Source: Bacteroidota bacterium
Lineage (GTDB): Bacteria; Bacteroidota; Bacteroidia; JAADEI01
Direction of reading: 5' to 3'
DNA: 64,000 nt
NCBI GenBank assembly: GCA_026992635.1
Contig: JALWYU010000040.1
Span: 1,920 to 65,919 of the forward strand
A model generated the notes under the pieces. It had not been told where the DNA came from, did no database searches, and saw only the letters and a list, made by a program, of their open reading frames with translations. Below, one piece after another: positions 26,418-43,634 of the stretch (positions are counted from its first letter, which is position 1; each line of letters begins with the position of its first letter). The translations under genes and the position numbers were made by a program.

Positions 26418-28250
26418 ATGAAGACAGACAGTTGTGAACAAGCGCACCCAGGCACTGAACATTTAACCAGCAATGCACGCTCCCGATGGTCCCCTCTCCT
26501 CACCTGCTGCCTCCTGACACTGACCCTACCAATCCTCGCACAAAACGTCGGCATCGGAACCACAAACCCCGAACCCACAGCTCGCTTAGACATCTGGGAC
26601 ACCACCCGAGGACTCCTCATTCCCCGTCTCACCACACAGCAACGCGATGCGATCCAGAACCCCGCCCACACACTCATCATCTTCAACATTGACTCTTTTT
26701 GCTTAGAAGTCTACGACACGCTCACTCAGCAATGGTACACCATCTCCTGCCCAAGACTGTGCCAGCCACCCTCCTGCACGCCCACCATCTCCGGACCCTC
26801 CTTCGCCTGCACCAGCGACACCACCACCTACATCGCTTCCGGCTGCCCAAACACCACCTACCAGTGGACAGTCCCACCCAACTGGACCATCCTCTCCGGA
26901 CAGGGCTCTGACACCCTGCGCGTCATTCCCGACACCACCGATGGAATTGTCTCCGCCAAACCCTGCAACCAGTGCGGATGCGCCAACGCCACCTCTATCT
27001 CCGTCTCCGCCGACTCATGCAACGCTTTTTGCCTCGCCATCGGCGGAGCGAATACCGATTGGGGCAGGTCAATCATCCAGACTGCAGATGGTGGCTTTGC
27101 CATCACTGGGTACACCAACTCCTTCGGCGCAGGTGGTTGGGACATCTACGTAATAAAACTGGACGCGCAGGGCAACCTGCAATGGACCAAAACAATCGGG
27201 GGACCAAATGACGAATACGGTTACTCCATCATTCAGACCACGGATGGCGGATATGCCATCGCTGGATTTACCAACTCCTTCGGCGCAGGCAACTTCGATG
27301 TCTACGTGGTGAAACTGGATGCTCAGGGCAATCTCCAGTGGACCAGAACTATCGGCGGAGCAAGTAGTGATGGCGGGTGGGACATCATCCAGACCAGCGA
27401 TGGAGGCTATGCCATCACTGGGTATAATTCTTTTGACGCATATGTGGTAAAACTGGATGCTCAGGGCAACCTCCAGTGGACCAGAACCATCGGTGGAGCA
27501 AGTGCCGAGAGAGGCAGGTCTATCATTCAAACCAGCGACGGAGGTTACGCCATCACGGGATATACCGGATCCTTCGGAGCAGGCGTTTATGATGTCTACG
27601 TGGTGAAACTGGACGCCAACGGCAACCTCCAGTGGACCAGAACCATCGGCGGAACCAGTAGCGATTATGGTATTTCCATCATTCAGACCACCGATGGTGG
27701 CTATGCCATCGCCGGATATACTCAATCATTTGGGGCTGGCAACAATGACGTCTATGTAATCAAACTGAATTCCTCAGGCAACGTGCAGTGGACCAAAACT
27801 ATCGGCGGAACAAACCTGGACGACGGCTACTCCATCCTTCAAACCACTGATGGTGGCTATATCATCGCTGGCTCTACTGTTTCCTTTGGCGCGGGCAACG
27901 GAGATATCTACGTGGTCAAACTGGACGCTCAAGGCAATCTCCAGTGGACCAAAACCATCGGCGGAACGAATAGCGAGCGGGGCGCTTCTATTACCCAGAC
28001 CACAGATGGAGGATATGCCATCACGGGATATACCCTCTCTTTTGGTGTTGGCGGTAGCGACGTCTACGTAGTCAAACTGGACGCCCAGGGCAACCTGATC
28101 AATTGCCCCAGCGGATGCCAAATCGGATCCGGCGGAACCGTCAACACAGGCGGATTCGCCAGCTCAGGCGGAACCACCAGCTCAGGCGGAACCATCGGAT
28201 CCGGCGGAACCACCAGCTCCGGCGGAACGCTGACCAACATCTGCCCCTAA
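26418..28250 (+). CDS. secreted repeat protein: N-terminal QNVGIGTTNP module, Cys-rich PKD-like segment, 7 beta-propeller-type repeats, Gly/Ser tail
   Basis: Signal peptide ...LLTLTLPILAQ. Repeat consensus IGGxxxDxGxSIIQTxDGGYAIxGYTxSFGAGxxDVYVVKLDAQGNLQWTxT occurs 7 times. The tail is SGGTTSSGGTIGSGGTTSSGGT. Confidence 0.8.
   Translation: MKTDSCEQAHPGTEHLTSNARSRWSPLLTCCLLTLTLPILAQNVGIGTTNPEPTARLDIWDTTRGLLIPRLTTQQRDAIQNPAHTLIIFNIDSFCLEVYDTLTQQWYTISCPRLCQPPSCTPTISGPSFACTSDTTTYIASGCPNTTYQWTVPPNWTILSGQGSDTLRVIPDTTDGIVSAKPCNQCGCANATSISVSADSCNAFCLAIGGANTDWGRSIIQTADGGFAITGYTNSFGAGGWDIYVIKLDAQGNLQWTKTIGGPNDEYGYSIIQTTDGGYAIAGFTNSFGAGNFDVYVVKLDAQGNLQWTRTIGGASSDGGWDIIQTSDGGYAITGYNSFDAYVVKLDAQGNLQWTRTIGGASAERGRSIIQTSDGGYAITGYTGSFGAGVYDVYVVKLDANGNLQWTRTIGGTSSDYGISIIQTTDGGYAIAGYTQSFGAGNNDVYVIKLNSSGNVQWTKTIGGTNLDDGYSILQTTDGGYIIAGSTVSFGAGNGDIYVVKLDAQGNLQWTKTIGGTNSERGASITQTTDGGYAITGYTLSFGVGGSDVYVVKLDAQGNLINCPSGCQIGSGGTVNTGGFASSGGTTSSGGTIGSGGTTSSGGTLTNICP
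27039..28103 (+). repeat. seven tandem intragenic repeats of about 141-156 bp (46-52 aa each)
   Basis: The repeats are nearly identical at the protein level. The block VKLDAQGNLQWT(K/R)TIGG recurs at regular spacing. Confidence 0.9.
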
Positions 28251-28780
28251 CCACCCCAAAACCACCAGCCCCACAACCTCAGAACAAACAATATGGCAAA
28301 TTCACCGCACACCCCTTCCAAACAGAAGTAATATGGCTCATTGACAGGTTCAAAGCCAGCCGACTGGCTCCTGCCATCCCTCATCCTATTAAGCCCCAAA
28401 GAACAACGCAGCAACCATCAGACCAGACGAGCAAACCTTCGCCTCCGTGGAAAAAGCCCTACCGCTAAAGAACGAAAAAACACCCTCGTCCAGAAACTTT
28501 GCAACCCGATCCTCCAGCCAGGAAAAAAACGCAACAACACCGCACCAGAAAAGAATAAAGAACGGGCTTCCACTCCAAACTGGCGACCTCCCCCCCCATC
28601 CAGAAAGCAACTCTCCCCTGCAAAGCACATTCCTTACCCAGCCAACAACCCAATCTCCCTACCAGACGTGCATCTTTCCCCAATGGATTCACCAACCCTC
28701 TCCACCCCAATGGCAAGCTCACCCCCAAATGCCCAATTGCCCCACACCTTATCCCAAGCCAACTCACACCCCCCCTGCCC

Positions 28781-30283
28781 TCACGGAGCCGACGCAAAGC
28801 TCGCCACCAGCTCCCGGAAAAAACTATCATGATCCGCACGAATCCCTCCATGCTGCTGCCGGCTGAACAACCGCTCCAGCTGCACACACGCATGAACCAC
28901 ATGCTGACGACGATGACCACCTTCCGCCTCCGACAAAACACGCAAAATGGACTGGCATTCGTCTACAAACAACAACGGCTCCTTCTTCTGATGGAAAAGA
29001 TGAAACAGGCGCTCCTGATAACTGCGCGCCTGAACACCCAAACCCAGATACCACGACACCAAAATCCCCGTGATACACGTCATCACCACCTGATTGTACG
29101 TCAAATACTGTAAATACGGCTTGATTCGCTCAATATAGTGAATCGCCTCTTCCCACCGGTGATGCTTCACAGCCAGAATCATCCGCCAGCAAAGCAAATT
29201 CCCAAGCATCTGCTGGACAGACGTATCCCCCACCTCCCCACTGAGCCGACGATACAAAACCCTGTACAGGGCACGGGCACGTCCCTCCTCACCCAGCAAC
29301 ACATAAAGAATGAATTCCAGAATCGCAAAATGCAGCGCATATTCACTGAACTTGCTCGTAGTCATAATGCGCTGGGCTTCCTGAATCGTCTTCTGGGCAC
29401 GCACCAGGTCCTTCATCCGAAAGTAAATGTTCGTCTGATCCGCCAAAGTCACCAACCACGCCCGTATCCACAAATTCCGAGTCTGCTTAAAATCACTGTA
29501 GGCAAACCGACTGCGTACAAACTGCAACTTTTCTTCAATGAGCTGCAACGCCTCTTCATATTGCCGCTTCACATACAGCCAGCGTACACGTAGCGTCATC
29601 AAGCGCAAATACAACCAGGGCACCTCCCGACCTACACACACCGCATCCACACGTCCATAATCCGCAAACAAACGCGTGCACAAATCAAGCCAGACACGCC
29701 AAACCTCACAACTGCGCGGCGTCCAGGGAAAACCCCAACGATCCAGCAAAAAAAGAAACAACCGGTGCGCAAGATTCTGACCACTGTGCAACTTACCATA
29801 GAGCATCCACCGATCTATCGCCCCTTCTTCTAAGAACAGGTCATCCGGATACGAACTGGTAGACTCCCAGTAATACAACCACAGAAACGGATCACCCACC
29901 TCACTGAGAAACCGCTCCGACTTGGACACACGAATCAACGTCGCATCCTGAAAACCCATTCGGCGCAACCCAATGATCGTCAGCAACTTCCACAAAAGAA
30001 AACCCCATTCATTTTCTCTCGCTTCCCACGCAATAAAATCCAACAGCGCATTCTTCAATCGGTGCAACGCCACGGGATCCGAAACACCACGACCCCTGCC
30101 CGACGACCGTCGCACCTGCCTGACCAGCACATTTAACTTATGATGACGACCCTGATACCGACGAACAAACACCGAAAACTTACGCAACCAGCCCGAACTC
30201 ACCTTCCGAACAATCCGACCAACAATGTACGCATTGATGGCTGCCCGACCCATCCTCGCCAGTTTCCCAACCCAAACCACCAC
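28781..30283 (-). CDS. hypothetical all-helical (TPR-like) protein
   Basis: 500-codon ORF with helical-repeat-like sequence. No catalytic motif was recognised. Start is GTG at 30283 or ATG at 30253. Confidence 0.55.
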   Translation of the reverse strand: MVVWVGKLARMGRAAINAYIVGRIVRKVSSGWLRKFSVFVRRYQGRHHKLNVLVRQVRRSSGRGRGVSDPVALHRLKNALLDFIAWEARENEWGFLLWKLLTIIGLRRMGFQDATLIRVSKSERFLSEVGDPFLWLYYWESTSSYPDDLFLEEGAIDRWMLYGKLHSGQNLAHRLFLFLLDRWGFPWTPRSCEVWRVWLDLCTRLFADYGRVDAVCVGREVPWLYLRLMTLRVRWLYVKRQYEEALQLIEEKLQFVRSRFAYSDFKQTRNLWIRAWLVTLADQTNIYFRMKDLVRAQKTIQEAQRIMTTSKFSEYALHFAILEFILYVLLGEEGRARALYRVLYRRLSGEVGDTSVQQMLGNLLCWRMILAVKHHRWEEAIHYIERIKPYLQYLTYNQVVMTCITGILVSWYLGLGVQARSYQERLFHLFHQKKEPLLFVDECQSILRVLSEAEGGHRRQHVVHACVQLERLFSRQQHGGIRADHDSFFRELVASFASAP

Positions 30284-30859
30284 TTCCCCACAGCCCCCAC
30301 ATAGAATCTACAGCGCTTTTGCCCAAACACCCAAACTACCTCCTAAACCCCACACAGCCATATAAACGGCTTGAAAACTGAAAAATATGCAAACCCACAC
30401 ATCCCTGAACATCCTCCCGCTCCAACACAAAATCAGAAATTAATCCGACAGTCAAACAAAGTTCAAACCTGCCAATACTGCCAAAATCCACACTCCAAAC
30501 AAGAAAAATTTTCCTTGCCATAGTGCTCAGCCGCTCTATTGGCAGTATACGCCTCTCTCCAATTTTGTGAATGCTTACGCTTGATTGTCATTCATTCGTT
30601 CCTCCACTCCGCCACCCTTTCGCGAGCCACAGCCGCCACACAACAATGCCATCTCCAAAAACTGATAAGCCTGTGACACACTGCGCAATCCAAAAATATA
30701 CTCACCACCTTCGCCTACGAACTCAACCTCGGACAACTCCGTCGCGACATCGGAACAACCGGCGCCTGGGAAACCTTCCTAGAAGGCGGATACCCACCTT
30801 CAACAACCGTACATAAAGCGTCTACACCCTGCCCCCGATTCTAAAACGATTCGCCCCCT

Positions 30860-32656
30860 TCACTGCAACACATACCCATTCCGCTCTAAAAAGTGACGCG
30901 CAATCTGCCGGCGCAACTGAAAAGTAGGTACCGCCGATAGACGCGTCCACCGACGTACCGCACCCTGCAACAACCGCAACTCATCCCCCTCAGCAATGTT
31001 CATCACAATCTCCTGAGCACGGTGCGCAACGACACCCAGTGCCTCCCGCGTCAACACCTGCACCAGCGGCACCATCAAAGGATACGAACCTCCGTGCTTC
31101 TGTGCACGCAACCAAGCCGACTCCGCCACCGCCACCTGAATCATCATGTCCGCCAATCCCATAATAATCTCCTGCTGCTCTTCCAGCCGATCCATGTACT
31201 TCTGAAACGCCGCACCTGCTAATAAATGAATCAACCGCTTCGCATTCTGAATTTGCCTGCCTTCCTCGGAAAGAGGCGCTCCCCCAGGCTCCGGCACCGT
31301 AATCTCCGTCAATGCCTGCTGCGCTTCATTGATTGCCCGCATCAGGTCCAGCTCGCCTTTCATGGCTTTGCGCGCCACCATAGACACCATCAACAGCCGA
31401 TTGATCTCATTCGTCCCTTCAAAGATCCGATTAATCCGGCTATCCCGATACATACGCGCCGCCGGATACTCCTCAATGTACCCATACCCTCCATAAATCT
31501 GCAACGTCTCATCCACAACAAAATCCAGAACCTCCGAACCCGCAACCTTCGTAATCGCCGTCTCTATCGCATACTCACGCGAGGCAAGCATGCTCGCCTC
31601 CGCCATCTTCCCCGACTGGCGTAACCCCTCCTCATAACGCTGAATCCACGTCGCCACCCGATAAATCAACGATTCCAGACCAAAAATCAACACACCCATC
31701 TGACTGATCTTCCACTGAATCGCTCCAAACTCCGCGATAGGCTTGCCAAACTGCACGCGCTCCTTCGCATACTGCGCCGCATACGCCAATGCACGCTTCG
31801 CAGAACCCAAACACGCCGCACCCAGCTTAAACCGACCCACATTCAATATGCCAAACGCAATATGATGACCTTTCCCAATCTCTCCCAGCACATTTTCCTT
31901 AGGAACCGGCACATCCTCCAGAAACACCGGACACGTAGACGCTCCCTTAATTCCCATCTTCTTCTCCTCAGGACCAATCGTAATCCCGCCAAAATCCTTC
32001 TCCACAATGAACGCAGTAAAATGCTCACCATCCACCTTCGCAAACACAATGAACAAATCGGCAAAACCCGCATTGGTGATGAACATCTTCTGCCCGTTCA
32101 AAATGTAATGCGTGCCAGCATCGTTCAACCGTGCCGACGTCCGAATTGACAGGGCATCCGAACCGGCATTGGGCTCCGTCAAACAATACGCCGATTTGCG
32201 CTTACCACTCGCTAAGTCCGGCAAATACTTCCTGCGCTGCGCATCCGTACCAAAATACTGAATAGGGAGCGTGCCAATCCCCGTATGCGCAAAAAACGAC
32301 ACGGCAAAGGAATGACCCGGACCCAGCGCCTCCGCCAAAATCGCACCCGCCTGAAAATCCGCACCACTCCCCCCATATTCTTCTGGCACCGTAAATCCCA
32401 GCAAGCCCAGCTCACCCGCTTTATCCAGCAGCTGGGGCATCAACCCCTCTTTGTGCGCATCCAGATCATCCAGCACCGGATACACCTCCTTCTCCAGGAA
32501 ATCCCGCGCCGTCTGATAAACCAGACGATGCTCCTCCGTCCAGTCCTCCGGAGTAAACAACGTTTGCGCATCTTCCTGACGCAACAAAAACTCACCACCA
32601 CGCAACCCCTGTACCTGAACCTCCGCCATCTCCCACAGGATTTCTTCTTCGTACAC
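30860..32656 (-). CDS. long-form acyl-CoA dehydrogenase
   Basis: 598 aa. The sequence includes LTEPNAGSDA, FITNAGFADLFIVFAKV and QIYGGYGYIEEYPAARMYRDSRINRIFEGTNEI. Confidence 0.9.
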   Translation of the reverse strand: MYEEEILWEMAEVQVQGLRGGEFLLRQEDAQTLFTPEDWTEEHRLVYQTARDFLEKEVYPVLDDLDAHKEGLMPQLLDKAGELGLLGFTVPEEYGGSGADFQAGAILAEALGPGHSFAVSFFAHTGIGTLPIQYFGTDAQRRKYLPDLASGKRKSAYCLTEPNAGSDALSIRTSARLNDAGTHYILNGQKMFITNAGFADLFIVFAKVDGEHFTAFIVEKDFGGITIGPEEKKMGIKGASTCPVFLEDVPVPKENVLGEIGKGHHIAFGILNVGRFKLGAACLGSAKRALAYAAQYAKERVQFGKPIAEFGAIQWKISQMGVLIFGLESLIYRVATWIQRYEEGLRQSGKMAEASMLASREYAIETAITKVAGSEVLDFVVDETLQIYGGYGYIEEYPAARMYRDSRINRIFEGTNEINRLLMVSMVARKAMKGELDLMRAINEAQQALTEITVPEPGGAPLSEEGRQIQNAKRLIHLLAGAAFQKYMDRLEEQQEIIMGLADMMIQVAVAESAWLRAQKHGGSYPLMVPLVQVLTREALGVVAHRAQEIVMNIAEGDELRLLQGAVRRWTRLSAVPTFQLRRQIARHFLERNGYVLQ

Positions 32657-32725
32657 AACACGCTTTTCTACCGCCCTTACTTACAATGTAGGCGGCCGCC
32701 AGAAAAGAATCACCCCCACCTCCAA

Positions 32726-32758
32726 TTTGGGGAACTTTCCATCACCCTTTTACTTTTG
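32726..32758 (+). promoter_or_regulatory. Bacteroidota-type promoter candidate (-33 TTTG, 21-nt spacer, -7 TACTTTTG) upstream of tRNA-Arg
   Basis: TTTG at 32726-32729 and TACTTTTG at 32751-32758 fit the TTTG-N19-21-TAnnTTTG consensus. The tRNA starts 50 nt downstream. Confidence 0.4.
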
Positions 32759-32807
32759 TTCCTCTTGCAGGGAGACACAAGCAAATTTCGTGCCAGCCCT
32801 CTGTCAC

Positions 32808-32880
32808 GCCCCCGTAGCTCAGCGGATAGAGCAGTGGCCTTCTAAGCCACGGGTCGCAGGTTCGAATCCTGCCGGGGGCA
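32808..32880 (+). tRNA. tRNA-Arg (anticodon UCU), no encoded CCA
   Basis: Manual cloverleaf. Acceptor stem GCCCCCG/CGGGGGC. D-arm GCTC-AGCGGATA-GAGC. Anticodon arm GTGGC-CTTCTAA-GCCAC. T-arm GCAGG-TTCGAAT-CCTGC. Confidence 0.9.
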
Positions 32881-33067
32881 CACGCACATCCCCCTTCCAA
32901 TACTCCCTGGGTGCAACGCCCATCCTCCGAACCCGTGTGCCGCATTCTCTATTATTATTTTCAGCACCCGTATGAGTGCGTCCAGCCAGGCACACCACCC
33001 ACTACCCCGAAAATTGCGCGAAAAATTTCCGGGGAGCACTTGCATAATTTCCTGCCGTGCCTTACTT

Positions 33068-33075
33068 TATATTTG
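33068..33075 (+). promoter_or_regulatory. candidate -7 element TATATTTG upstream of the tail-fibre-like gene
   Basis: It matches TAnnTTTG and lies 68 nt upstream of the ATG at 33143. No clean -33 TTTG is present at the canonical spacing. Confidence 0.3.
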
Positions 33076-33142
33076 AGTTTTGCAGAAGCGGTCAACCGCA
33101 CACGTCAGGGAAGCGTATCCCCCATGCAAAATCCCCACAGAA

Positions 33143-34678
33143 ATGGCAACTTCAACACGTAAGTGCTACTGGCTCTTCACAGCGCTTTCGCCTCTCTGGC
33201 TGAACGCACAAAATGTAGGCATAGGAACCACCAGCCCCTCCGCACGTCTACACATCCTTGCCCCCAACACCTTCAACCAGGACCTGCTCCGCATAGAAAA
33301 AACCGGGGCAAACGCACCCTTCCTGATTCTCACCCCAGATGGTAAAGTGGGCGTCCACACCGCTTCACCCCAGGCACCACTCCACGTCAGTGGCAACACA
33401 CGCATAGACGACACCCTCTTCGTGGGCAGAGGCATCTGGTTCAACCAGGAACTGGCACCCGCCGGACAGCCCGGGCAACCCGGCTATATCCTGATGAGCC
33501 AGGGTGCCGGACAACCACCTATCTGGATTGACACCGCCTCACTCCTGTCAGGCGCCGGCGACAACTGGGGATCGCAAGTTGCCATCACCCAATCACCCAT
33601 CATCGGCTCCGGACTTGCCGCCAATCCGATCCGCCTCCAAAACGGAACCACCGCCGGACAAATCCTCTACTGGAACGGAGCCACCTGGCAAATCACCAGT
33701 TTATCCACCGTAGAAGCCGATCCCAACGCCTGGCACCTCACCGGTAACGCCATCAACCCCTCTCAATTCCTGGGCACCACCAACAACCAGCCACTCATCT
33801 TCAAAACCAACAACACCGAACGGATGCGTATTACACAGAGTGGCACCGTCGGAATCGGACTGACAACACCCCAGGCACGACTGCACGTCCACTCCACTGC
33901 CCTCCCCTTCATCGCACAAATTGCTTCTTCTGCCAACGTCAACATCGCCGAATTCCGGCACAACGACGCCTGGTGGCTCTTCCACGTAGACGGCGCCAAC
34001 CACCCCGAACTGGGGATCTACAACCCCGCCACCAACACCACCCAGTGGAACGTACTGGACTTCGACCGAAACACAGGACACGTGGGTATGGGTACCAATG
34101 CCGTCTCCACCGCCCGACTCAAAATCTGGGGCAACTTGGAACTCTCTGGCGGCGACTTCCGACCCAATAACAATCCCGGTACAAGTGGTCAGGTCCTGAT
34201 GAGCCAGGGCGCCGGAACACCACCCATCTGGGCTTGGGCACTCACCAAAAACCACGTCTACGTCGCCTACTCCAGCTACAACCCGCCTTTGCAACTTTCA
34301 GGCAACGTATGGAAAACCATCGCAGGACCCATCACCGTCTGGCTGCCCGCCGGCGCCAAAGTCCTTGCCTACGCCACCGGCGGCGCAATGACTACAGGCG
34401 TGTGCTACGCCTCAGCTGACATCCGGATCTCCGTCAACGGAAACAACTTCCCCAACGGCGCCTACACCAAAGAAACCGTAGACTACAACGTTGCCTGGGA
34501 CCTCTTTGACGTCTACACCGTCATGGGGGTGTACACCGTACCCGCCAGCGGCAACTACACCTTCCGCTTAGAAGGTTGGGGACCCGCCGCACCCAGCGAA
34601 GCCAACTGCTATCTCCAGGTGGGCGGCGACAACTCATCCGTCCTCCAGGCAACTCTGATGATCGTCGTCCTCAAATAA
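33143..34678 (+). CDS. secreted tail-fibre-like / cell-surface protein with repeated VGIGTxxPxARLHV modules
   Basis: Signal peptide MATSTRKCYWLFTALSPLWLNAQ. NVGIGTTSPSARLHI, GTVGIGLTTPQARLHVH and GHVGMGTNAVSTARLKIW are present. G(Y/Q)(I/V)LMSQGAGxPPIW occurs twice. The C-terminus is beta-rich. Confidence 0.7.
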   Translation: MATSTRKCYWLFTALSPLWLNAQNVGIGTTSPSARLHILAPNTFNQDLLRIEKTGANAPFLILTPDGKVGVHTASPQAPLHVSGNTRIDDTLFVGRGIWFNQELAPAGQPGQPGYILMSQGAGQPPIWIDTASLLSGAGDNWGSQVAITQSPIIGSGLAANPIRLQNGTTAGQILYWNGATWQITSLSTVEADPNAWHLTGNAINPSQFLGTTNNQPLIFKTNNTERMRITQSGTVGIGLTTPQARLHVHSTALPFIAQIASSANVNIAEFRHNDAWWLFHVDGANHPELGIYNPATNTTQWNVLDFDRNTGHVGMGTNAVSTARLKIWGNLELSGGDFRPNNNPGTSGQVLMSQGAGTPPIWAWALTKNHVYVAYSSYNPPLQLSGNVWKTIAGPITVWLPAGAKVLAYATGGAMTTGVCYASADIRISVNGNNFPNGAYTKETVDYNVAWDLFDVYTVMGVYTVPASGNYTFRLEGWGPAAPSEANCYLQVGGDNSSVLQATLMIVVLK

Positions 34679-34770
34679 CCAAACACTCCGCCCCAACCTT
34701 CCTCCGCCTCGCCAAACCAAAACACACACAACAAGGGAGGGGAGGGGGAACCTCTCTCTCAAAGACCACC

Positions 34771-35182
34771 CTACGAAACCACTTCAAACACGCAATCTAC
34801 AAGCCGGTTCGCATTGCAAAACGCCACCTGCGCCTTGAATCTAAGCTCTACACCTAACTTTTTCAGGTTCCTTTGCCAGCGAGGGATTTGCATAGCAGGC
34901 ACTTTCCCCATATTGCCCACCACAATTGCAAACTTGTGAAATTGTGCCCATTCCTTCCCGAAATGAGCTCTCATTCTCTTTATCGTGCTCTCCAGTTGCT
35001 GATAAGCCACACCAATATGGTTGTCTCTCTGCAGGATCATACCACCAGATACCCAACCTTTTGCCCTCTACTTCATAAATTTTCTTTCCTGCGGACTCTT
35101 GAATAAACCTTAACGAACCTTTCAGCCCAAATTTCTTTCTGTTCTCTTCGTAGATAACAATAACTTTTTGTGAGCCCATCAA
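34771..35182 (-). pseudogene. small ORF split over two overlapping frames (112 aa from the ATG at 35179; 89 aa from 35040); either a frameshifted gene or two overlapping small genes
   Basis: Frame A reads MGSQKVIVIYEENRKKFGLKGSLRFIQESAGKKIYEVEGKRLGIWWYDPAE... Frame B opens 9 codons before its ATG and reads MILQRDNHIGVAYQQLESTIKRMRAHFGKEW... The frames overlap across about 200 nt, including an agagaga run near 35025. The ORF starts 12 nt after the ATPase stop. Confidence 0.4.
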
Positions 35183-35193
35183 AATTGCCTGGC

Positions 35194-36483
35194 TTATCGG
35201 CCATTAGATAACGCCAGAATCTTATTAATCTCGTCAGAAATATCCTCCATCACTGCATCAATCGTGTTTGCCTCTATCAAGCCATCTTCCCCCATAAGAT
35301 TCCTCACACTCCCAGATTTCAGCTCATACACCGCCACGCTCTGAGGTTCAAGCCAAATATCCCCATAGGATTCTTTCAACTGCTCAGACTTTGACTGCTC
35401 ATATTCCTGCCTTGCCAGCAAAAGATTGTTCACAGCACTGAGAATGTAAGGACTGTGCGTGGTGACAAAAAAACGCGCCCCCACCATATTCTGAACAAAC
35501 GCCAACAGATAAATCAAATCAACCTGACGAGCAGGAAACAAATGCGCCTCCGGTTCCTCTATGATGAAACTGACAGACTCCTCGCGTTTCATTAACGCCT
35601 TCCTCAAAGATAACAAAATGGGCAACAACTCCTGTTGACCTGAAGAAAGAAAATCCGGTGTTCTTGCCCCTGTACGCGCTGATTCCACAACAACCGGCAC
35701 ATGACGTTCATCGCCAGCTTCAATACGCCCTCTGAGTAACCTGAACTCACGCCTTAAATAAGCACGATACAAATCCTCATCCATCCTGCGACGACCAAAC
35801 TGCAATACAACCTCTTTGGCTATCACGCTCAGCTCACGAATGAAATGACGCAAAAACGGATCGGCAACCACACGATCCGGAACCAAAGTCAACGCCTCCG
35901 AATACAAATACAAAGCCCGACTATGGGGAATGTAGACAGAGTGCGACCCAAGCCTGCCTATCACCGTACCCTCCAAACTCGTAAGCAAGGCACGTACAAA
36001 TCTTTTCATTGTTTCTTCCGAAGACATTGCCTCAGCTTCCACGATCTTGTGAAGCGTATCTTTCAGGAGTCCAATGATTGCCTGGCTCTCCCCAAGATGC
36101 TCCCCGAATATCGCCACCAGGTTGTTCTCATGAACCTGAATCCCATCAATATCATGCTCTCCCAAAACGATTTCCAGCACAGGCTTTTGACCAAAAAAAT
36201 ACCGAATAGTGCCTCTCCCCAAAGTCGTATAGGGCACAGCAAATGCCTCCTGCCACCACCTCCGAATCTTCAATAGAATTTCCTCACGGTAAACCTCAGC
36301 CAATTGCTCGTCACCAAATAATGGATATGCCAGCAAGTACAGGAGCGCCTCCCTCAATAGAAACAAAACCTTTGCGAGCACACTCTTGCCCTCCGCATTA
36401 TCGCCAATCAAAACCGTAAACGGCTTCACCTCAAGATCAACGCGCCGAACAACCAGAAAGTTCTCAACGAGCACCCTTTCCAT
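35194..36483 (-). CDS. ABC-type AAA family ATPase (AAA_15/AAA_21-like, SMC/OLD-class)
   Basis: ATG at 36483. The N-terminus is MERVLVENFLVVRRVDLEVKPFTVLIGDNAEGKSVL (Walker A). The ABC signature LSSGQQ, the Walker B FIIEEPEAHLFP and the H-loop FVTTHSPYIL are present. Confidence 0.85.
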   Translation of the reverse strand: MERVLVENFLVVRRVDLEVKPFTVLIGDNAEGKSVLAKVLFLLREALLYLLAYPLFGDEQLAEVYREEILLKIRRWWQEAFAVPYTTLGRGTIRYFFGQKPVLEIVLGEHDIDGIQVHENNLVAIFGEHLGESQAIIGLLKDTLHKIVEAEAMSSEETMKRFVRALLTSLEGTVIGRLGSHSVYIPHSRALYLYSEALTLVPDRVVADPFLRHFIRELSVIAKEVVLQFGRRRMDEDLYRAYLRREFRLLRGRIEAGDERHVPVVVESARTGARTPDFLSSGQQELLPILLSLRKALMKREESVSFIIEEPEAHLFPARQVDLIYLLAFVQNMVGARFFVTTHSPYILSAVNNLLLARQEYEQSKSEQLKESYGDIWLEPQSVAVYELKSGSVRNLMGEDGLIEANTIDAVMEDISDEINKILALSNGR

Positions 36484-36529
36484 CTCTACTGTGTTCAGCA
36501 GACGACCTTGCTCAGCCCAGCTCCACGCT

Positions 36530-36955
36530 TCAACCCTGCCAGAACATGAAAACACTGTAAACCAGCAACAAAACCAGCACCGCTCCATAAAACCACCCCA
36601 GCGTAAGGGAAAACATAATTCTAACTGGCGACTGCTCCTCGCCCCTAAAACGATAAGCATTCAAATCAAATAGGTATTCGTCGGTTTTCAGTCTATTGCG
36701 AATGACCCAATTATAGAGCCGACGATACAGCCTCTCCTGCCACAAAAAATAAGCATCCAGAAACCAAAAGGCAAGCAACAGAATACCACCAGCCAGCCCC
36801 AGCACACCCGCTCCCCCCAGCAAAACCACAACCGACACCAAAACCGCAAATCCCTTAATCAAAAAAGAATTCATCGCCATCCGCCTGATCACACCCTGAA
36901 TCAACTCAACCTCCTTAAGCAAAAACGCCTTTAACTCTTCGCGCGTGTACCCCAT
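36530..36955 (-). CDS. small integral membrane protein (N-terminal amphipathic helix plus 3 predicted TM)
   Basis: 141 aa. Hydrophobic segments are FAVLVSVVVLLGGAGVLGLAGGILLLAFWFL and LTLGWFYGAVLVLLLVYSVFMFW. A basic loop WQERLYRRLYNWVIRNR lies between them. The gene is 46 bp upstream of the ATPase. Confidence 0.65.
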   Translation of the reverse strand: MGYTREELKAFLLKEVELIQGVIRRMAMNSFLIKGFAVLVSVVVLLGGAGVLGLAGGILLLAFWFLDAYFLWQERLYRRLYNWVIRNRLKTDEYLFDLNAYRFRGEEQSPVRIMFSLTLGWFYGAVLVLLLVYSVFMFWQG

Positions 36956-37093
36956 CCGATTGCCTGCCCAATTTTACCTCTCAGGGTCTTCATTCCTGGG
37001 AACGTCCCTTACGCACTGCAAGTTCCCAAAGTGCATACACGCTATCCGCTGGACAGCAGCAAATTTCCACCCCCTCACCACTACCAACCGCCA

Positions 37094-37762
37094 CTACTCC
37101 TCAGACCACGGCACACCAAACCGACTCCGAAACGCAATCGCACGCAACGGTAAACGATCTCGCTCCGCACGCTCCGACTCCGCCAAATCCCCGGGCAACT
37201 GATCCGGATCACCCAGATACCCCACAGCTATTGCCGTCACCGGGTCAAACGTCTCCGGAACACCAAACACCCGACGAACACACTCCCCATCAAACCCGCC
37301 CATCACATGCACGTACAAACCATACGCACGCGCCTGCAAAATCAACTGTGCCGTCGCTAAGCCCACATCATGCCAGGCATGCGCATTCTTCACGTCCAGC
37401 CGATCCCAAAGATGCTTCTTGGCAAGCGCAATCATCAGAACCGGTACCGTCTTCGTCCACTGCCGATTGAACTCCACCAAACACCGATAGATCCGCTCCC
37501 AGGTCACCGGATCCCGATACCGATCCCCAACAATAAACCGCCACGGCTGGTCATTGTACGAAGAGGGCGCCCACCGAGCCGCCTCCAGCATTCCACGAAT
37601 ATACGCCTCAGGTACCGGCTTGTCCAAAAACGCACGCGGACTCCACCGCGTCTGAATCAAAGGATGAACAGGAACACTGGTTCGCGCCAACTTCTTTTCC
37701 AGCCAATCCTGCCAATCCTTCTCCAAACGCGAATCCATCCCCGACACATTTTGCTTTGACAA
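37094..37762 (-). CDS. nitroreductase family protein
   Basis: IQTRWSPRAFLDKPV...MLEAARWAPSSYNDQPWRF. Confidence 0.85.
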   Translation of the reverse strand: MSKQNVSGMDSRLEKDWQDWLEKKLARTSVPVHPLIQTRWSPRAFLDKPVPEAYIRGMLEAARWAPSSYNDQPWRFIVGDRYRDPVTWERIYRCLVEFNRQWTKTVPVLMIALAKKHLWDRLDVKNAHAWHDVGLATAQLILQARAYGLYVHVMGGFDGECVRRVFGVPETFDPVTAIAVGYLGDPDQLPGDLAESERAERDRLPLRAIAFRSRFGVPWSEE

Positions 37763-37790
37763 AGCACCACACCCAACCCCTACCCTACAT

Positions 37791-39056
37791 TCAACTTACA
37801 GCGCTTTCCCGTTTGTGTGGATACAGTTCTAAAGCCCGGGCAAGTACTTCAAGCGCTTCGCGCAACCGATCCACACCCACCACAAACGCAATTCGCACCT
37901 GGTCGCAACCCCTGCCCCCCGACACGTAAAACCCCGCACCCGGCGCAAGCAACACCGTCGTATCCACCCCGCCTACCTCCAGAAAATCCGTCAGCAACCA
38001 CCGGCAAAACACTTCCGAATCCTCAACCGGTAACTCCGCAAACACATAAAACGCACCTTGCGGAACCGGAGCTCGCACACCCGGCAGACCCCGTACCGCC
38101 TCCAGAAACACCTGACGGCGCCTGCCAAACTCCTCCACCACCCTATCTATCCACCAGGAAAACTCTTCCAGAATCAGTTGCACCAGATACTGTCCCAGGA
38201 GTGGCGGACTTAACCGCGCCTGACCCATCCGCAACAACACATCATACAGTTGACGATTCCGCGTGACCAACAGTCCCGTCCGAACCCCACATAAACTCAT
38301 CCGCTTGGAAAACGAATCAATCACCACCACATGATCCTCCACCCCTTCAAACGTCAGCAAACTCCGCGTCTTGACACCCCCATAAAGGAACTCCCGGTAA
38401 ACCTCATCGGCAACCAGCCACAGATTCTTCTCCCGCGCAAACGCCACCAAATCCGCAAGCATCTCCGACGAATACACCGTACCCGTCGGATTGTTCGGAT
38501 TGCAAATCAGAATGGCTTTCACTTCGGGGGTCCACCGCGAAAGGAACGCCTCAATATCGGGCAAGGCAAAATTCTGGGCGATCGTCGTGGGAACCGGCAC
38601 GACACGCCCACCCACCATCCTGACAATCCCCACATAATTGGCATACAATGGCTCAGGAATCATCACCGCATCCCCCGCATCCAGTAGCGCACGCAAGACA
38701 AACCACAATGCCTCCGAAGCACCCGCCGTAATCAAAATCTCCGACTCCGGATCCACCTCTATACCTAACCCCCTGTAATAGCGAGCAATGGACTGGCGAA
38801 CACCTGCCAGACCCGCCGAGTGCGAATACGCCAGCAACGATGGAACCCGACCACGAAACGCATCCAGAATCTGATCCGGCAAGGGAATATCCGGCTGACC
38901 AATGTTCAGATAAATCACCTGCTTGCCACGACGTTCCGCACCCTCCGCCAGAGGAATCAACTTCCGAATAGGAGATGGCGGCAACTGCCCCGCCACACCC
39001 GATAACCGCGGACCACCACCCAAACCAGACCCTTCAATCTTGCGACCCTCAAGCAT
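37791..39056 (-). CDS. PLP-dependent aminotransferase (class I, aspartate/aromatic type)
   Basis: SPIRKL, YLNIGQPD, NPNNPTG and SFSKRMSLCGVRTG (PLP lysine) are present. The ATG at 39056 is preferred over 39080. Confidence 0.85.
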   Translation of the reverse strand: MLEGRKIEGSGLGGGPRLSGVAGQLPPSPIRKLIPLAEGAERRGKQVIYLNIGQPDIPLPDQILDAFRGRVPSLLAYSHSAGLAGVRQSIARYYRGLGIEVDPESEILITAGASEALWFVLRALLDAGDAVMIPEPLYANYVGIVRMVGGRVVPVPTTIAQNFALPDIEAFLSRWTPEVKAILICNPNNPTGTVYSSEMLADLVAFAREKNLWLVADEVYREFLYGGVKTRSLLTFEGVEDHVVVIDSFSKRMSLCGVRTGLLVTRNRQLYDVLLRMGQARLSPPLLGQYLVQLILEEFSWWIDRVVEEFGRRRQVFLEAVRGLPGVRAPVPQGAFYVFAELPVEDSEVFCRWLLTDFLEVGGVDTTVLLAPGAGFYVSGGRGCDQVRIAFVVGVDRLREALEVLARALELYPHKRESAVS

Positions 39057-41532
39057 GCCTCCCACCTTTTTGTTTCGCACCCAAAGAAGAAGAAGCCGAC
39101 GATCCCGCTCGCATCACCGAACCTTGCCCGTATGAACCGCGCAAGCCACTGCCCCCAGAACCCAACCCCGACGAACGCGAACCCACCGAGTAATAGTACG
39201 ACGAGTACGAATACCCATAATACCGATACAACACCCGCGAAACCCCATTCAGAATGAACCCCTCCAGCTGTCCACCTACCTCCACCAACTCCTCCACATC
39301 ATGATACAACTGCGCAAACGAACTTTTTCCAGTGCGAACCACATAAATAAACCGCGTCCACGGATGAATCCACGTCTTGCAATCGCCACCCACACTCCAT
39401 GGCGGCAAATCCACTACAACCCATTGATACAGGCGACTCCACACACCTAACAACCGCAAATGCACCTTCTGATGAAGCAATTCCAGTGCCCGAGCACTGG
39501 TTTCCCCACCCACCAGCAGCGCATCCAGAAAAACCGACTGACTGCCAGGAACACGCAACCGATGAACCGCACGCCCTATCCGATCCGTCCACTCGTCCCC
39601 ATCTACCGCATCCCCTCCTTCCTGAACTTGCTCCATCAACCGATACCACGGATACACAACCTCCGAAATACCCAACCGCTCATGAAACGCCGACCGACGC
39701 AAATCCCCTTCTACGAGCAGAACCGACTGACCCGCTCGCGCTAACCCATACGCCAGATTCAACGCAATAAACGTTTTGCCTTCACCTGGCTGCGACGACG
39801 TAACAAGCAAAATGCGCGCAGGCTCTACACTCCGCAACCGATGCACAAACGTCATTGCCAGATTGTCAAAAATGTCCTTTTGCAACAATGAAGCGCGCCA
39901 GCTCCGCATAGAAAGGTACGGAACCACACCCAGTACCGGCTGAAAACCATGACTGCGCAAATCCTCCACCGTATACACCCTGTCACTGAAAAAGTACAGG
40001 AAAAGCAAATGGCACAACGCCAGTAACAACGCCACACCCAGAGCAAACGCATACGCCTCACGCACCCGAGGATACACCGGCAAAAACGAACTGGTGGGCT
40101 GAGCAACCACTTCAAAGGGTGCGGGCAAACTCACACGCGCAATCTCTATTTCCGTCAGCCGACGCAACAACTCATGATACTGCTCCTGCAAAAACTGGAG
40201 ATCGCCCGCCATGAGAAATGTATCCGGCAGGGCACGCACACGCGTGCCCGACACCCCCTCTAACGCACGAACCAGCACCTGACGCTCCTCACGAACCTGC
40301 CGCCGTAAACTTTCCAAAAGCCGAATTAACATCTGGCGAACCAGCCGAACCTCCTCCCGTAACTGACGAACTAACGGATGATCCGAACGATACCGCATCT
40401 GCTCCAGCCGCTCTATCTCCCGAACCTTCTGCCACCACTGATCCACCAGCACACGCACCTCCCTGTCCTCCGGTAAATACGGATAGATTTCCAGCGGCAA
40501 AAGATTGGTATCGGTCGCCAACCACTCCAGCACCATGGTTAACGTCGCCTCCTGCATCTGAAGACGACGAATGCGACGCGCCAAAAACACGGGATGGGCA
40601 CTCGTATCTATAGGCATCGGCGCTGACCCTTGCTGGCGCAAGCGCTCACGCTGAACATACGGGAGCAACGCCTCTATCTCTTCTCGCAACACCGACAGCC
40701 GACCGCGCAAATACTCTTCTGCGCGCTTCAACTGACTTTGCTGATGATGACGGGCATACGCATCCAGCGCATGAATGAAAACCTCCAGGTGCCGGCGCGC
40801 ACGCAACGCATTGGTGCTCTTCAAACGCAACGTGAATAAACCAGGAAATGCCGGATCCGACTCAATCTCCACATTGTCCAGCAACCACCGGGCATACTCC
40901 CCCGGCGGATACACCTCCAGCTGATATCCATGCTGAGCCAGCGTACGACACGCACCACGCAAACTATCTATCACCACCTCCAGACAACTCTCACGCAAGG
41001 TATCCCCCCAGACCACGCGCACAACTTTACTGATCACCCGACTCTGAATCAGAACCTCCACTTCCCCACAATGCCCGCCCTCCTGAATCGTAAGCACCAC
41101 AGGTACCTGACACGTAAAAACCGAAAACGAAACACGCATCGGTACATTGTGCACTTCCGTACGCCCCAAAAAACCCTTTGTATACAGCAAAACGGTGGGC
41201 GAATCCAGACGCTTCCGTAAAAAGTGAATCAGCTCCGACGAACGAAACCGACGCTGAACCTGACGCAACCACTGTGCCGTCAACTGCTCACGCAACGCCG
41301 GTACCGACGCCAATAAGTCCTCCTCAGAAAACGTATTGACACTCAGTAAAATCTGTGCCCTCGCCTCATAAATGGGCGGCGTGTACCGCAACCACAAAAA
41401 CGCAGACAACAACGACAACACCAACAACGCACCATACACGTACCAGTTCTTGCGAAACAGGTCATACAGAATCTCCCAGCGAAACCACCGTCCCCGATTG
41501 TCCAACCCCGATAAGCGGACACCCGCCGCCAT
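39049..41532 (-). CDS. polysaccharide chain-length determinant / tyrosine autokinase (Wzc/GumC-like)
   Basis: An N-terminal Wzz-like TM plus coiled region is followed by the kinase Walker A SSQPGEGKTFIALNLA and VLLVEGDLRR. The C-terminal tyrosine cluster is YRYYGYSYSSYYYS. Confidence 0.85.
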   Translation of the reverse strand: MAAGVRLSGLDNRGRWFRWEILYDLFRKNWYVYGALLVLSLLSAFLWLRYTPPIYEARAQILLSVNTFSEEDLLASVPALREQLTAQWLRQVQRRFRSSELIHFLRKRLDSPTVLLYTKGFLGRTEVHNVPMRVSFSVFTCQVPVVLTIQEGGHCGEVEVLIQSRVISKVVRVVWGDTLRESCLEVVIDSLRGACRTLAQHGYQLEVYPPGEYARWLLDNVEIESDPAFPGLFTLRLKSTNALRARRHLEVFIHALDAYARHHQQSQLKRAEEYLRGRLSVLREEIEALLPYVQRERLRQQGSAPMPIDTSAHPVFLARRIRRLQMQEATLTMVLEWLATDTNLLPLEIYPYLPEDREVRVLVDQWWQKVREIERLEQMRYRSDHPLVRQLREEVRLVRQMLIRLLESLRRQVREERQVLVRALEGVSGTRVRALPDTFLMAGDLQFLQEQYHELLRRLTEIEIARVSLPAPFEVVAQPTSSFLPVYPRVREAYAFALGVALLLALCHLLFLYFFSDRVYTVEDLRSHGFQPVLGVVPYLSMRSWRASLLQKDIFDNLAMTFVHRLRSVEPARILLVTSSQPGEGKTFIALNLAYGLARAGQSVLLVEGDLRRSAFHERLGISEVVYPWYRLMEQVQEGGDAVDGDEWTDRIGRAVHRLRVPGSQSVFLDALLVGGETSARALELLHQKVHLRLLGVWSRLYQWVVVDLPPWSVGGDCKTWIHPWTRFIYVVRTGKSSFAQLYHDVEELVEVGGQLEGFILNGVSRVLYRYYGYSYSSYYYSVGSRSSGLGSGGSGLRGSYGQGSVMRAGSSASSSLGAKQKGGRHA

Positions 41533-41567
41533 CCCACGCCACCTTTCACCGCTTCACCACTGCCACA

Positions 41568-42383
41568 CTAAGGAACACCAACCGTGACCAGCAACACCAC
41601 CGTCAACAGCAACGAAGACAAACTGGAAAGCATCGTCAACACAGGATACACCTCCCGACTCAATAACCGCGAAGGACTCCACGCCGGATATACATGCACA
41701 ATGTCCCCATCATAAATGGGAATGTACGCATACATTGCCCGCTCAACCCGACGCAAATCAACCTCCTGCACATACACAACAGAGTCTATACGACGCAAAA
41801 TCCGAATCTGACGGGCACGCGTCCACGCCGGTAGCCCACCCGCCGCCACCACCACCTCAATCAACGGAACACCCTGCTTATCCAGCGAAACCACCTTCGC
41901 ACCCTCCACACCCAAAACCACATACGCCTTCCGATGCACACGCCGCACCACAACCATCGGCAACCGATAATACCGACTGTACAGCGTTTCCAGACGATGA
42001 CGCGCCGCCTCCAGCGACAAACCTGCCAACCGCACAACACCCACCAGCGGCAGCGCAACCATCCCCTCCTCCGAAACCTCATAATGCACATCCGACGAAA
42101 CTCCACTACTCCCTCCTCCCGTATTCCGCTCTATGAGGTCAATCCCCTCAGACGGATACACCTGAATCAAAAGCACGTCGCCCGGACGAATCACCTCACG
42201 CACCACTGGCAATGAGTCTGTATACCGAACCGAACCCCGGGGCGCACCCCCCGAAATCGGCGTGCCCAAAAACATCGCCTCCGGAAAAAAAGCACGACAA
42301 CCCCACAACAAACCCAAACCCATCACACCACACAAAACCAACCCACGCCAATCGGTTTCCAGAGCAGCCCCCGCCTTCACCAT
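41568..42383 (-). CDS. polysaccharide export protein (Wza-like, Poly_export plus SLBB)
   Basis: IRPGDVLLIQVYP, GMVALPLVGVVRLAGLSLEAARHRLE and VLGVEGAKVVSL...LIEVVVAAGGL are present. It lies upstream of the wzc-like gene. Confidence 0.75.
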   Translation of the reverse strand: MVKAGAALETDWRGLVLCGVMGLGLLWGCRAFFPEAMFLGTPISGGAPRGSVRYTDSLPVVREVIRPGDVLLIQVYPSEGIDLIERNTGGGSSGVSSDVHYEVSEEGMVALPLVGVVRLAGLSLEAARHRLETLYSRYYRLPMVVVRRVHRKAYVVLGVEGAKVVSLDKQGVPLIEVVVAAGGLPAWTRARQIRILRRIDSVVYVQEVDLRRVERAMYAYIPIYDGDIVHVYPAWSPSRLLSREVYPVLTMLSSLSSLLLTVVLLVTVGVP

Positions 42384-42501
42384 GCTCCTGTCTGTTCAGC
42401 AAAAAAGCAACCACAACCCAGAAGCTCCTCCGCCAACTCTACTATTGAGGGAACCGTTTTTTTGCCATTTCGGTTTCTCCTTTTTGAAAAATGCACCTTC
42501 C

Positions 42502-42999
42502 ATGTCGCCAGAACAACCTGCCCGCCAAAATCGTAAATCCCGAGCCGGCGTGCTCATCCTCATACTGGTAATTGGCATAGCCATCGCACTGGTCGCAATT
42601 CAGACCAATTTCTTAGGACGCGCCAAATCGCACAATCCCCAGCAACCACAAACCTCCAGGCAAAGCACACTGGAAAATGTCTCCGCCCAGCAATTCTACC
42701 AGCTGGTCCAGAAAAACCAGTGCATCGTCCTGGACGTCCGTACCGCACAGGAATACCAGCAGGGGCATATCCCTGGCGCGAAAAACATAGACTTTTACAG
42801 CGATTCTTTCCGCCAGGTATTAAGCCGGTTGCCCCGGGATACCGCCTATTGTGTATACTGTCGCTCGGGTAGACGAAGCACGATCACTGCTCAGCAAATG
42901 GCACGGATGGGCTTCCACCAGATCTACAACCTCCAGGGCGGAATCCTCCAGTGGCAACGACACCGCTACCCCTTGCAGAAAGGCAGTTCAACCCGTTAA
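42502..42999 (+). CDS. membrane-anchored rhodanese-domain sulfurtransferase
   Basis: ATG at 42502. TM segment GVLILILVIGIAIALVAI. VLDVRTAQEYQQGHIPGAKNI is present. The active-site loop is YCRSGRRS. Confidence 0.8.
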   Translation: MSPEQPARQNRKSRAGVLILILVIGIAIALVAIQTNFLGRAKSHNPQQPQTSRQSTLENVSAQQFYQLVQKNQCIVLDVRTAQEYQQGHIPGAKNIDFYSDSFRQVLSRLPRDTAYCVYCRSGRRSTITAQQMARMGFHQIYNLQGGILQWQRHRYPLQKGSSTR

Positions 43000-43045
43000 T
43001 CCACACCTCCTGCCAGCCCTTTGCTCTCCCTGTCAGCACAAAGCA

Positions 43046-43597
43046 ATGGAATTCTCCTCAGCAATCCCTACCGGAGAAGAAAATGAACAGGCACGCCACG
43101 AACGCTTCCTCCGATTCTGGCAAAACATCCCTTTATCCACAGGCAAGCCCTACCCCGATACAAGGCTCTGGGACCACAGCCGACAGCAATGGCGCCGATC
43201 CACGCCCGAAGAAATCATTCGCCAGCACGTGCTCTATTGCTTAGAAGCGTTCTTTGAAGTGCCCCGCCTCTACATCAGCACCGAAACTGCACTGCGCCAC
43301 TTTGCCCGAAACCGATACCCCACACGCGAACGTGCCGACGTCCTCGTCCTGGATAAAACCCTTCATCCCGCCCTCCTCGTAGAGTGCAAAGCACCGTCAA
43401 TACCCCTGAACTGGACAGTGATGCAACAGGCACTGACTTACCTGCGCCATATCCCCGTCTACCTGCTATGGCTCACCAACGGCAAGCACCACTGGATGGC
43501 ACAGCGTGTCAGTCCACGAACATGGCAACCCATCTCCTTCTTACCGGTATGGCGTACCTGGGAACCCCCCTCCTTCCTACAGAACACGACCGGCTGA
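43046..43597 (+). CDS. type I restriction enzyme HsdR N-terminal-domain-like protein (stand-alone)
   Basis: RADVLVLDKTLHPALLVECKAPSIPL is a PD-(D/E)XK-like core typical of HSDR_N_2 proteins. The ATG is at 43046. Confidence 0.6.
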   Translation: MEFSSAIPTGEENEQARHERFLRFWQNIPLSTGKPYPDTRLWDHSRQQWRRSTPEEIIRQHVLYCLEAFFEVPRLYISTETALRHFARNRYPTRERADVLVLDKTLHPALLVECKAPSIPLNWTVMQQALTYLRHIPVYLLWLTNGKHHWMAQRVSPRTWQPISFLPVWRTWEPPSFLQNTTG

Positions 43598-43634
43598 CGC
43601 ATCTCCACCCGACCACACAGAAAATCCCACGAAC

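Follow-up and report, generated by a model that had tools for sequence, protein, structure and literature searches.

The window analysed here, a stretch of 64,000 nucleotides from a member of the Bacteroidota (assembly GCA_026992635.1, contig JALWYU010000040.1, positions 1,920 to 65,919), contains an islet of three co-directional open reading frames (ORFs) that probably represents a pair of distinct anti-phage modules, each of a known kind, which have been inherited together; one lacks its partner and the other is disabled. The first module is a lone gene for a three-helix membrane protein of the family called PDC-M50A in PADLOC, which appears to include ThsF, the type V Thoeris effector; the second is an ABC-type ATPase gene followed by the apparent remains of a gene for a small PD-(D/E)xK nuclease. 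Judged from sequence comparison, the three genes are not one system but two modules that meet in one lineage. The features concerned are the following:

36955..36530, 36483..35194 and 35182..34771, minus strand: islet of three co-directional ORFs
36530..36955, minus strand: gene for a three-helix membrane protein of 141 amino acids, PDC-M50A/ThsF-like family, with no TIR partner here
35194..36483, minus strand: gene for an ABC-type ATPase of 429 amino acids (OLD/PtuA-like, AAA_15/AAA_21), nucleotide-binding motifs intact
34771..35182, minus strand: putative pseudogene of a small PD-(D/E)xK-type nuclease partner, PDC-M29B-like, with a 95-nt deletion (ORF3)

The original prediction, made from the DNA sequence of this stretch, had described three tightly spaced minus-strand ORFs, the first two with these coordinates, and gaps of 46 bp between the membrane-protein and ATPase genes and about 12 bp between the ATPase gene and ORF3, all of which hold. 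The three-helix topology that it gave for the membrane protein is borne out by a structural model, and its assignment of the ATPase to the AAA_15/AAA_21 class, akin to PtuA, GajA, AriA and OLD, is confirmed by matches in Pfam, PADLOC and the PDB, with the motifs that it listed falling on invariant columns of the family. The view that these are defence-type genes is supported. The further proposal of a novel three-gene system, in a combination matched to no named system, is refuted: its parts match the catalogued PDC-M50A, PDC-M29A/B and, more weakly, HEC-02B, one of them is a homologue of the gene in the effector position of type V Thoeris, and the trio is not conserved together elsewhere.

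Co-occurrence and shared history of the three genes

Gene partnerships were compared in 83 loci of the membrane-protein family, 80 of them collected by scanning, and in a sample of ATPase loci made up of 80 metagenomic loci with relatives and three loci obtained by exact look-up. The ATPase of the window adjoins the membrane-protein gene in none of the 80 scanned membrane-protein loci, the pairing being confined to the window's own lineage (L005 and L006), and the membrane protein is present in none of the 80 ATPase loci. At one locus (L040), a weakly similar ATPase lies 2.3 kb from the membrane-protein gene. Co-occurrence of the trio, which had been put forward as a check on the original prediction, thus takes the form of separate partnerships outside this lineage: the membrane protein pairs with a TIR protein and the ATPase with a small nuclease.

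The locus L005 (GCA_027048825.1), a contig of a related genome, is syntenic with the window: the trio is flanked there, as here, by the nitroreductase gene and the tail-fibre-like gene. The third gene of L005 is intact and encodes 166 amino acids. Synonymous divergence (dS) between the window and L005 is 0.55-0.75 in four of the five islet segments compared and 1.3 in the 54-codon N-terminal piece of ORF3; in the flanking genes it is 0.47-0.60. Because dS is similar in the islet and its flanks, the islet is, on this comparison, old relative to the split from L005, and purifying selection would have acted on its genes during most of the period since, with ratios of nonsynonymous to synonymous divergence (dN/dS) of 0.15-0.32, including 0.15-0.18 for the two parts of ORF3. 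The trio is common to the window and L005 by descent. Because the gaps are short and no terminator-like site is present anywhere in 34500-37300, the three genes are probably co-transcribed. The likely promoter region of a shared transcript is the only sizeable non-coding stretch ahead of them, although no sigma-70-like promoter was detected on the minus strand of 34500-37300:

36956..37093, minus strand: intergenic stretch upstream of the membrane-protein gene

These observations bear on the alternative that the islet is a single three-gene system, in which the ATPase would sense infection and activate the membrane protein, an effector that would form pores or cause depolarisation, while the third protein served as an accessory. 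Such a system would fit the common strand, the short gaps without a terminator-like site, the presence of the trio at the same locus in L005 and L006 with every gene under purifying selection, and the retention of conserved cytoplasm-side residues in the membrane protein. It is nevertheless improbable, as the pairing recurs in none of the scanned loci of either gene, each gene has a strongly recurrent partner of its own (a TIR protein or a small nuclease), and conservation in L005 is what simple shared ancestry would give.

The membrane protein

All four PDC-M50A models of PADLOC match the membrane protein of the window, the best of them (PDLC04686, E 1e-36) spanning residues 12-136 and profile positions 5-131 of 134. 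The protein also matches phrog_19896 (E 2e-23), and it matches no Pfam family. An AlphaFold2 model built with 95 homologues has a predicted local distance difference test score (pLDDT) of 95.2 and three main helices at residues 5-46, 51-87 and 117-140: a long N-terminal helix runs into the first transmembrane segment (TM1), TM2 runs on into a basic helix (WQERLYRRLY), and two short helices lead to TM3. No significant match was obtained by fold (Foldseek, PDB and BFVD) or by sequence (profile search of PDB sequences). Identification as a SLATT effector was considered and rejected on a negative Pfam test, no SLATT family matching either this protein or any of 95 relatives; a single SLATT protein appeared in BFVD, at an E-value of only 5.3. 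The family is both very large, a profile search (E <= 0.001) retrieving 4,211 clusters at 50% identity, and conserved to an unusual degree, with close relatives (55-77% identical) in many bacterial and archaeal phyla.

The window copy shows a localised departure from the family:

36776..36850, minus strand: divergent patch in the membrane-protein gene (TM1, outer loop and start of TM2; residues ~36-60)

Within this patch, a G/T-rich sequence stands in place of the family consensus, and alignment of the proteins shows the loss of the near-invariant residues W36 and P59 and of a charged KGxKY loop. When the DNA is aligned with that of L005, identity collapses in the patch only; the single indel there is of 3 nt and leaves the reading frame unchanged. 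The residues Q20, R25, N29, S30, K34, D67, E74 and R78, conserved on the cytoplasmic side, are retained, and dN/dS for the gene against L005 is 0.19.

Genomic partners of the membrane-protein family

A gene for a ThsB-like TIR protein lies immediately downstream of the membrane-protein gene and on the same strand in 36 of the 83 loci, and a TIR gene is present somewhere in the locus in 41. PDC-M50B is itself a ThsB-type TIR protein, and the partners found beside relatives match its model with E-values of 1e-64 to 1e-67. All eight of the plasmid homologues inspected (from Klebsiella, Campylobacter, Priestia, Vibrio, Terribacillus, Lactiplantibacillus, Streptomyces and Haladaptatus) adjoin a TIR gene, in one gene order or the other. 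The membrane-protein gene and its TIR partner are found amid restriction-modification genes in L001, L002/L003 and several further loci; when all neighbours of the membrane-protein gene were clustered, TIR proteins and methyltransferases recurred, and no ABC ATPase did. An AAA ATPase beside the homologue on Campylobacter plasmids is not of the ABC type. No TIR gene was found in any frame of the window with a hidden Markov model (HMM) built from 47 partner TIR proteins.

It is very unlikely that the membrane protein is a stand-alone toxin, immunity protein or housekeeping protein for which the TIR neighbour is incidental and without a signalling role. That interpretation would accommodate the loci without any TIR gene, which make up about half of the total, the lack of a Pfam family or structural match, and the position of distant homologues beside a type II secretion pseudopilin gene in giant sulfur bacteria. 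Against it, TIR genes are repeatedly found next to the membrane-protein gene, in either order, in phyla of Bacteria and of Archaea, the pair lies within restriction-modification operons, and the neighbouring TIR proteins are homologous to validated type V ThsB.

The family has other conserved surroundings as well. Distant homologues (45-53% identical) adjoin the pseudopilin gene in a conserved context in six loci (L063, L069, L076, L080, L081 and L087) from Parabeggiatoa, Thioploca, Thiomargarita and metagenome-assembled genomes (MAGs) of other Thiotrichaceae or Gammaproteobacteria, with no TIR gene nearby, which hints at a use of the family outside Thoeris. In L004 (4571-7867), a homologue without a TIR gene lies between two AAA_14/DUF4143 genes (PDC-S01 in PADLOC) and adjoins a type I CRISPR-Cas operon. 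On two of the plasmids, of Streptomyces (L178, 2432-4887) and Haladaptatus (L179, 1428-2968), the homologue and its TIR gene lie beside a gene for a HIT-domain protein; the HIT domain is reported to be the effector of type XI Thoeris (10.64898/2025.12.03.692087), and one TIR protein may therefore serve two effectors at these loci.

Relationship to type V Thoeris and PDC-M50

In the validated type V Thoeris systems, the TIR protein ThsB makes 3' cyclic ADP-ribose (3'cADPR), which triggers ThsF, a protein with three membrane helices that is annotated as DUF2270 and has been modelled as an oligomeric ring that has basic pockets between its protomers (10.64898/2025.12.03.692087). A tblastn search of plasmids with the TIR proteins from two of the validated systems as queries led to the very TIR genes that neighbour genes of the membrane-protein family, with identities of 48.6% in Priestia (L174), 47.3% in Terribacillus (L176), 39.5% in Klebsiella (L172) and 66.7% in a second Priestia locus (L181). 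The genera among these TIR hits mirror those among the membrane-protein hits. The identity of 66.7% in L181 is to the TIR domain of the validated ThsB of Bacillus sp. 1NLA3E, and only 3 nt after this TIR gene begins a gene of 135 amino acids whose product is 38% identical to the membrane protein of the window (BLASTP 4e-19; hhalign probability 99.7%, E 2.7e-25). From this chain of sequence comparisons, which includes the validated TIR proteins rather than the validated ThsF sequences themselves, we conclude that the membrane protein is a putative effector of the ThsF family.

The window protein thus resembles type V ThsF in its small size and three membrane helices, in the position of its relatives directly beside ThsB-type TIR genes, and in the 40-67% identity of those TIR proteins to validated type V ThsB. 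It differs in that the 64 kb of the window contain no TIR gene, the next gene being that of an ABC ATPase, in that it does not match Pfam PF10028 (DUF2270), and in that the outer loop between TM1 and TM2 has been exchanged for the G/T-rich patch. The '3TM' category of the same preprint was not equated with the family, its TIR proteins belonging to another clade (32% identity over 57 residues).

PDC-M50 is an untested candidate system of PADLOC in which component A is a small membrane protein and component B a ThsB-like TIR protein (10.1101/2024.01.29.577857); a literature search by name found it in no main text, and it is listed only in a supplementary table. It appears that PDC-M50 is type V Thoeris or largely overlaps it, either as the same thing or as a large branch. 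Component A is present in the window with a nearly full-length match, but component B is absent from the locus, which leaves the two-gene candidate system incomplete.

The ABC ATPase

The ATPase matches the Pfam families AAA_15 (1.4e-17) and AAA_21 (1.1e-14); its closest PADLOC models are NsnB, AriA, PDC-M29A, PD-T4-4_A, PtuA and GajA, with NsnB and AriA scoring higher than PDC-M29A (2e-17), and among solved structures an OLD-family ATPase and PtuA are closest to it. The protein carries the Walker A motif GDNAEGKS (G27...G32-K33-S34), the signature LSSGQQ (S280-S281-G282-Q284), the Walker B/D-loop FIIEEPEAHLFP (E309-E310-P311-E312-H314) and the H-loop TTHSP (T341-T342-H343-S344-P345). Because all of these motifs sit on invariant columns of a 15-sequence family alignment, the ATPase looks intact as far as its sequence can indicate. 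The nearest homologue outside its own lineage is 35% identical. Comparison with the N-termini of the family supports a start at 36483 (MERVLVENF...); the public gene call (464 amino acids) is too long by 35 codons at its start and runs into the end of the membrane-protein gene (36484-36588). A role as the nucleotide-binding domain of an ABC transporter was rejected, transporter models matching the Walker A region only (E 0.06-0.1), and a transporter is likewise not suggested by the membrane protein, which has three helices and matches no permease family.

The broken nuclease gene

A gene resembling ORF3 (137-180 amino acids) lies directly downstream of the ATPase gene in 64 of the 67 ATPase loci that have at least 450 nt of downstream sequence, and usually overlaps it by a few bases. 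The ORF3 family was built from these downstream genes; a word-indexed homologue search with the intact ORF3 of L005 had returned only itself and the window fragment. Across 57-66 distinct sequences, the residues D63, E81, K83 and Q93 (numbered as in L005) are invariant and L82 and G84 nearly so, giving the pattern CD-x17-(hydrophobic)-ELKG-x8-Q. Only two PDB entries match the family profile, Cas4 SSO0001 (4ic1) and EndoMS/NucS (5gke); both are PD-(D/E)xK nucleases and both align exactly on this motif. Scattered weak Pfam matches (HSDR_N_2, PDDEXK_3, PDDEXK_9 and SfsA) fall in the same superfamily, and intact relatives of ORF3 match PDC-M29B (1e-6 to 8e-8) and, less well, HEC-02B (about 1e-3). 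A low-confidence model of intact ORF3 has a strand that ends with E81-x-K83, followed by a helix with Q93, the order expected for a nuclease core.

In the window, the ORF3 region consists of two overlapping frames of 113 and 89 amino acids, which the original prediction had taken for a small split ORF. It is really one gene of about 166 amino acids: aligned with the DNA of the intact L005 gene, the window copy cleanly lacks 95 nt, and this deletion accounts for the two frames. The N-terminal part extends from about 35179 to a junction near 35031/35030, and the C-terminal part continues in the other frame to the stop at 34771-34773. The statement that no nuclease partner is recognisable proved wrong for the family, in which the D...ExK...Q motif is invariant; the window has lost that motif through the deletion. 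The C-terminal remnant alone still matches the family HMM (3.2e-10). The two frames merged across the junction gave no Pfam or PADLOC match of value, and the link to PDC-M29B comes from the intact relatives only. With D63, E81 and K83 lost to the deletion and the frame shifted, the predicted nuclease is almost certainly inactive in the window. The deletion is specific to the window's lineage.

There is a slight chance that the ATPase-nuclease pair is intact and active in the organism, the deletion then reflecting faulty assembly or a variant of the minority within a contig that most likely derives from a metagenome, as its relatives are MAGs or metagenome contigs. Purifying selection on both halves of ORF3 would fit this, since it implies that the loss is at most recent. 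However, the deletion is clean and lies inside an otherwise well-aligned gene, and the gene called publicly on this contig encodes the truncated product of 112 amino acids (P0242). Assemblers rarely make internal deletions of 95 nt in unique sequence.

The ATPase and ORF3 are best described, from their sequence matches, as a divergent member of the PDC-M29/HEC-02 kind. HEC-02 consists of an ABC ATPase and a NERD-like PD-(D/E)xK nuclease and has been shown by experiment to be defensive, with both genes needed, whereas PDC-M29 shares its ATPase family but has the status of an untested candidate (10.1101/2024.01.29.577857). The cassette found here in the family, an ABC ATPase gene directly followed by that of a D...ExK protein of 140-170 amino acids, is the same; in contrast, the window matches are weak, the best PADLOC match of the ATPase is not PDC-M29A, and the nuclease is without its catalytic core. 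Although the ATPase belongs to a clade shared with Septu (PtuA/PtuB), Gabija (GajA/GajB), PARIS (AriA/AriB) and OLD nucleases, neither it nor ORF3 nor the intact relatives of ORF3 offer the HNH partner of Septu (PtuB), a TOPRIM domain, fused or separate, the UvrD-like helicase of Gabija, or the DUF4435 TOPRIM partner of PARIS (AriB). One related locus (L010, 182-6498) is a tandem defence array, in which, after two successive pairs of ATPase and small nuclease (438+137 and 348+143 amino acids), there come an OLD-like TOPRIM ATPase and a UvrD-type helicase, arranged much as in Gabija.

Base composition and surroundings of the islet

With a G+C content of 0.471 over 34771-36955, the islet is the lowest of 310 equal-sized windows (mean of the whole window 0.551, standard deviation 0.021), and the stretch 35101-35160 contains 21 G+C in 60 positions. 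The drop in G+C reported in the original prediction is confirmed by these figures, but the disappearance of strand skew that was reported with it is not: the GC skew of the islet is -0.334 against a window mean of -0.248 (standard deviation 0.143), and its AT skew is 0.136 against a mean of 0.144, becoming locally negative only at 34800-35400. Recent acquisition, which had been argued from these features, is not confirmed, given the presence of the same trio and flanks in L005 and the similar dS of islet and flanks. On the plus strand, GC skew is strongly negative throughout (about -0.2 to -0.5 in the profile of 28000-44000). Because the skew also extends across a gene on the plus strand, at 33080-34678, the asymmetry is not simply a coding-strand effect.

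The islet is flanked by the following genes:

37094-37762, minus strand: nitroreductase gene
33080-34678, plus strand: tail-fibre-like gene, on the other side of the islet

The product of the tail-fibre-like gene is a secreted-looking protein of 532 amino acids that matches phage tail-fibre PHROGs (E 1.9e-13). The gene contains internal direct repeats of 38 nt that are 89% identical and 705 nt apart, and it adjoins the islet in L005 too. A gene for tRNA-Arg(TCT) lies at 32808-32881, 1.9 kb from the islet. No convincing attachment-site repeats were found around the islet; an imperfect 16-nt direct repeat (14/16) at 32774-32789 and 37052-37067 brackets the tRNA gene, the tail-fibre-like gene and the islet and may be due to chance.

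Proposed mode of action

If the islet consists of two modules, each may be understood by reference to its relatives. In type V Thoeris, as published for validated systems, the ThsB TIR protein would sense infection and produce 3'cADPR, which would trigger the three-helix ThsF, modelled as a ring-shaped oligomer that breaches the membrane. The window would hold only the effector-type gene of such a module, under purifying selection and with no TIR gene in cis; this orphan may answer to a TIR protein encoded elsewhere in the genome, or it may be an idle remnant. In the second module, the ABC ATPase is thought to sense infection and to license the small PD-(D/E)xK nuclease. That module is most likely dead in the window, where the ATPase is intact and the catalytic D, E and K of the nuclease have been deleted, and would be intact in L005.

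A different connection between the modules is conceivable though unlikely, namely that the ThsF-type effector was captured by the ABC-ATPase module, which replaced the TIR sensor, so that the ATPase would gate a Thoeris-type pore directly and no nucleotide signal would be involved. Once the nuclease was lost, the only effector left would then be the membrane protein. In a milder version, orphan ThsF genes may be kept in order to listen in trans to cADPR signals from TIR proteins encoded elsewhere.

Several points weigh against the interpretation of the islet as one partnerless and one disabled module. The link to ThsF is made by transitive homology and gene position. PF10028 (DUF2270) matched neither the window protein nor three close relatives at E-values up to 10, and also none of eight plasmid homologues; among 95 diverse relatives it matched three only, with a best E-value of 1.4e-5. 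In the BFVD fold search, the highest TM-score (0.68) belonged to a DUF2270 protein, but at an E-value of 4.6. The membrane protein may also act alone, given the share of its loci that have no TIR gene nearby. The nuclease assignment is based on a motif and on weak profile matches (E about 1 for the two PDB entries), and the single-sequence AlphaFold2 model of intact ORF3 has a pLDDT of 57.7 and no meaningful Foldseek match. Assembly or variation within the population could account for the deletion, since the contig is most likely of metagenomic origin, and the tight spacing, the lack of terminators and the purifying selection on the trio in two lineages also fit a true three-gene operon.

Significance

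The annotation of this locus changes from an apparently novel three-gene system to two catalogued modules, one partnerless and one disabled, at an islet for which automated defence finders would probably report nothing. The ThsF-like effector family, which occurs in both Bacteria and Archaea, falls outside the coverage of Pfam. In the small partner of this ATPase clade, the invariant D...ExK...Q residues are clear targets for mutation. Orphan effector genes that are under purifying selection, such as that of the window, raise the question of whether Thoeris effectors work in trans.

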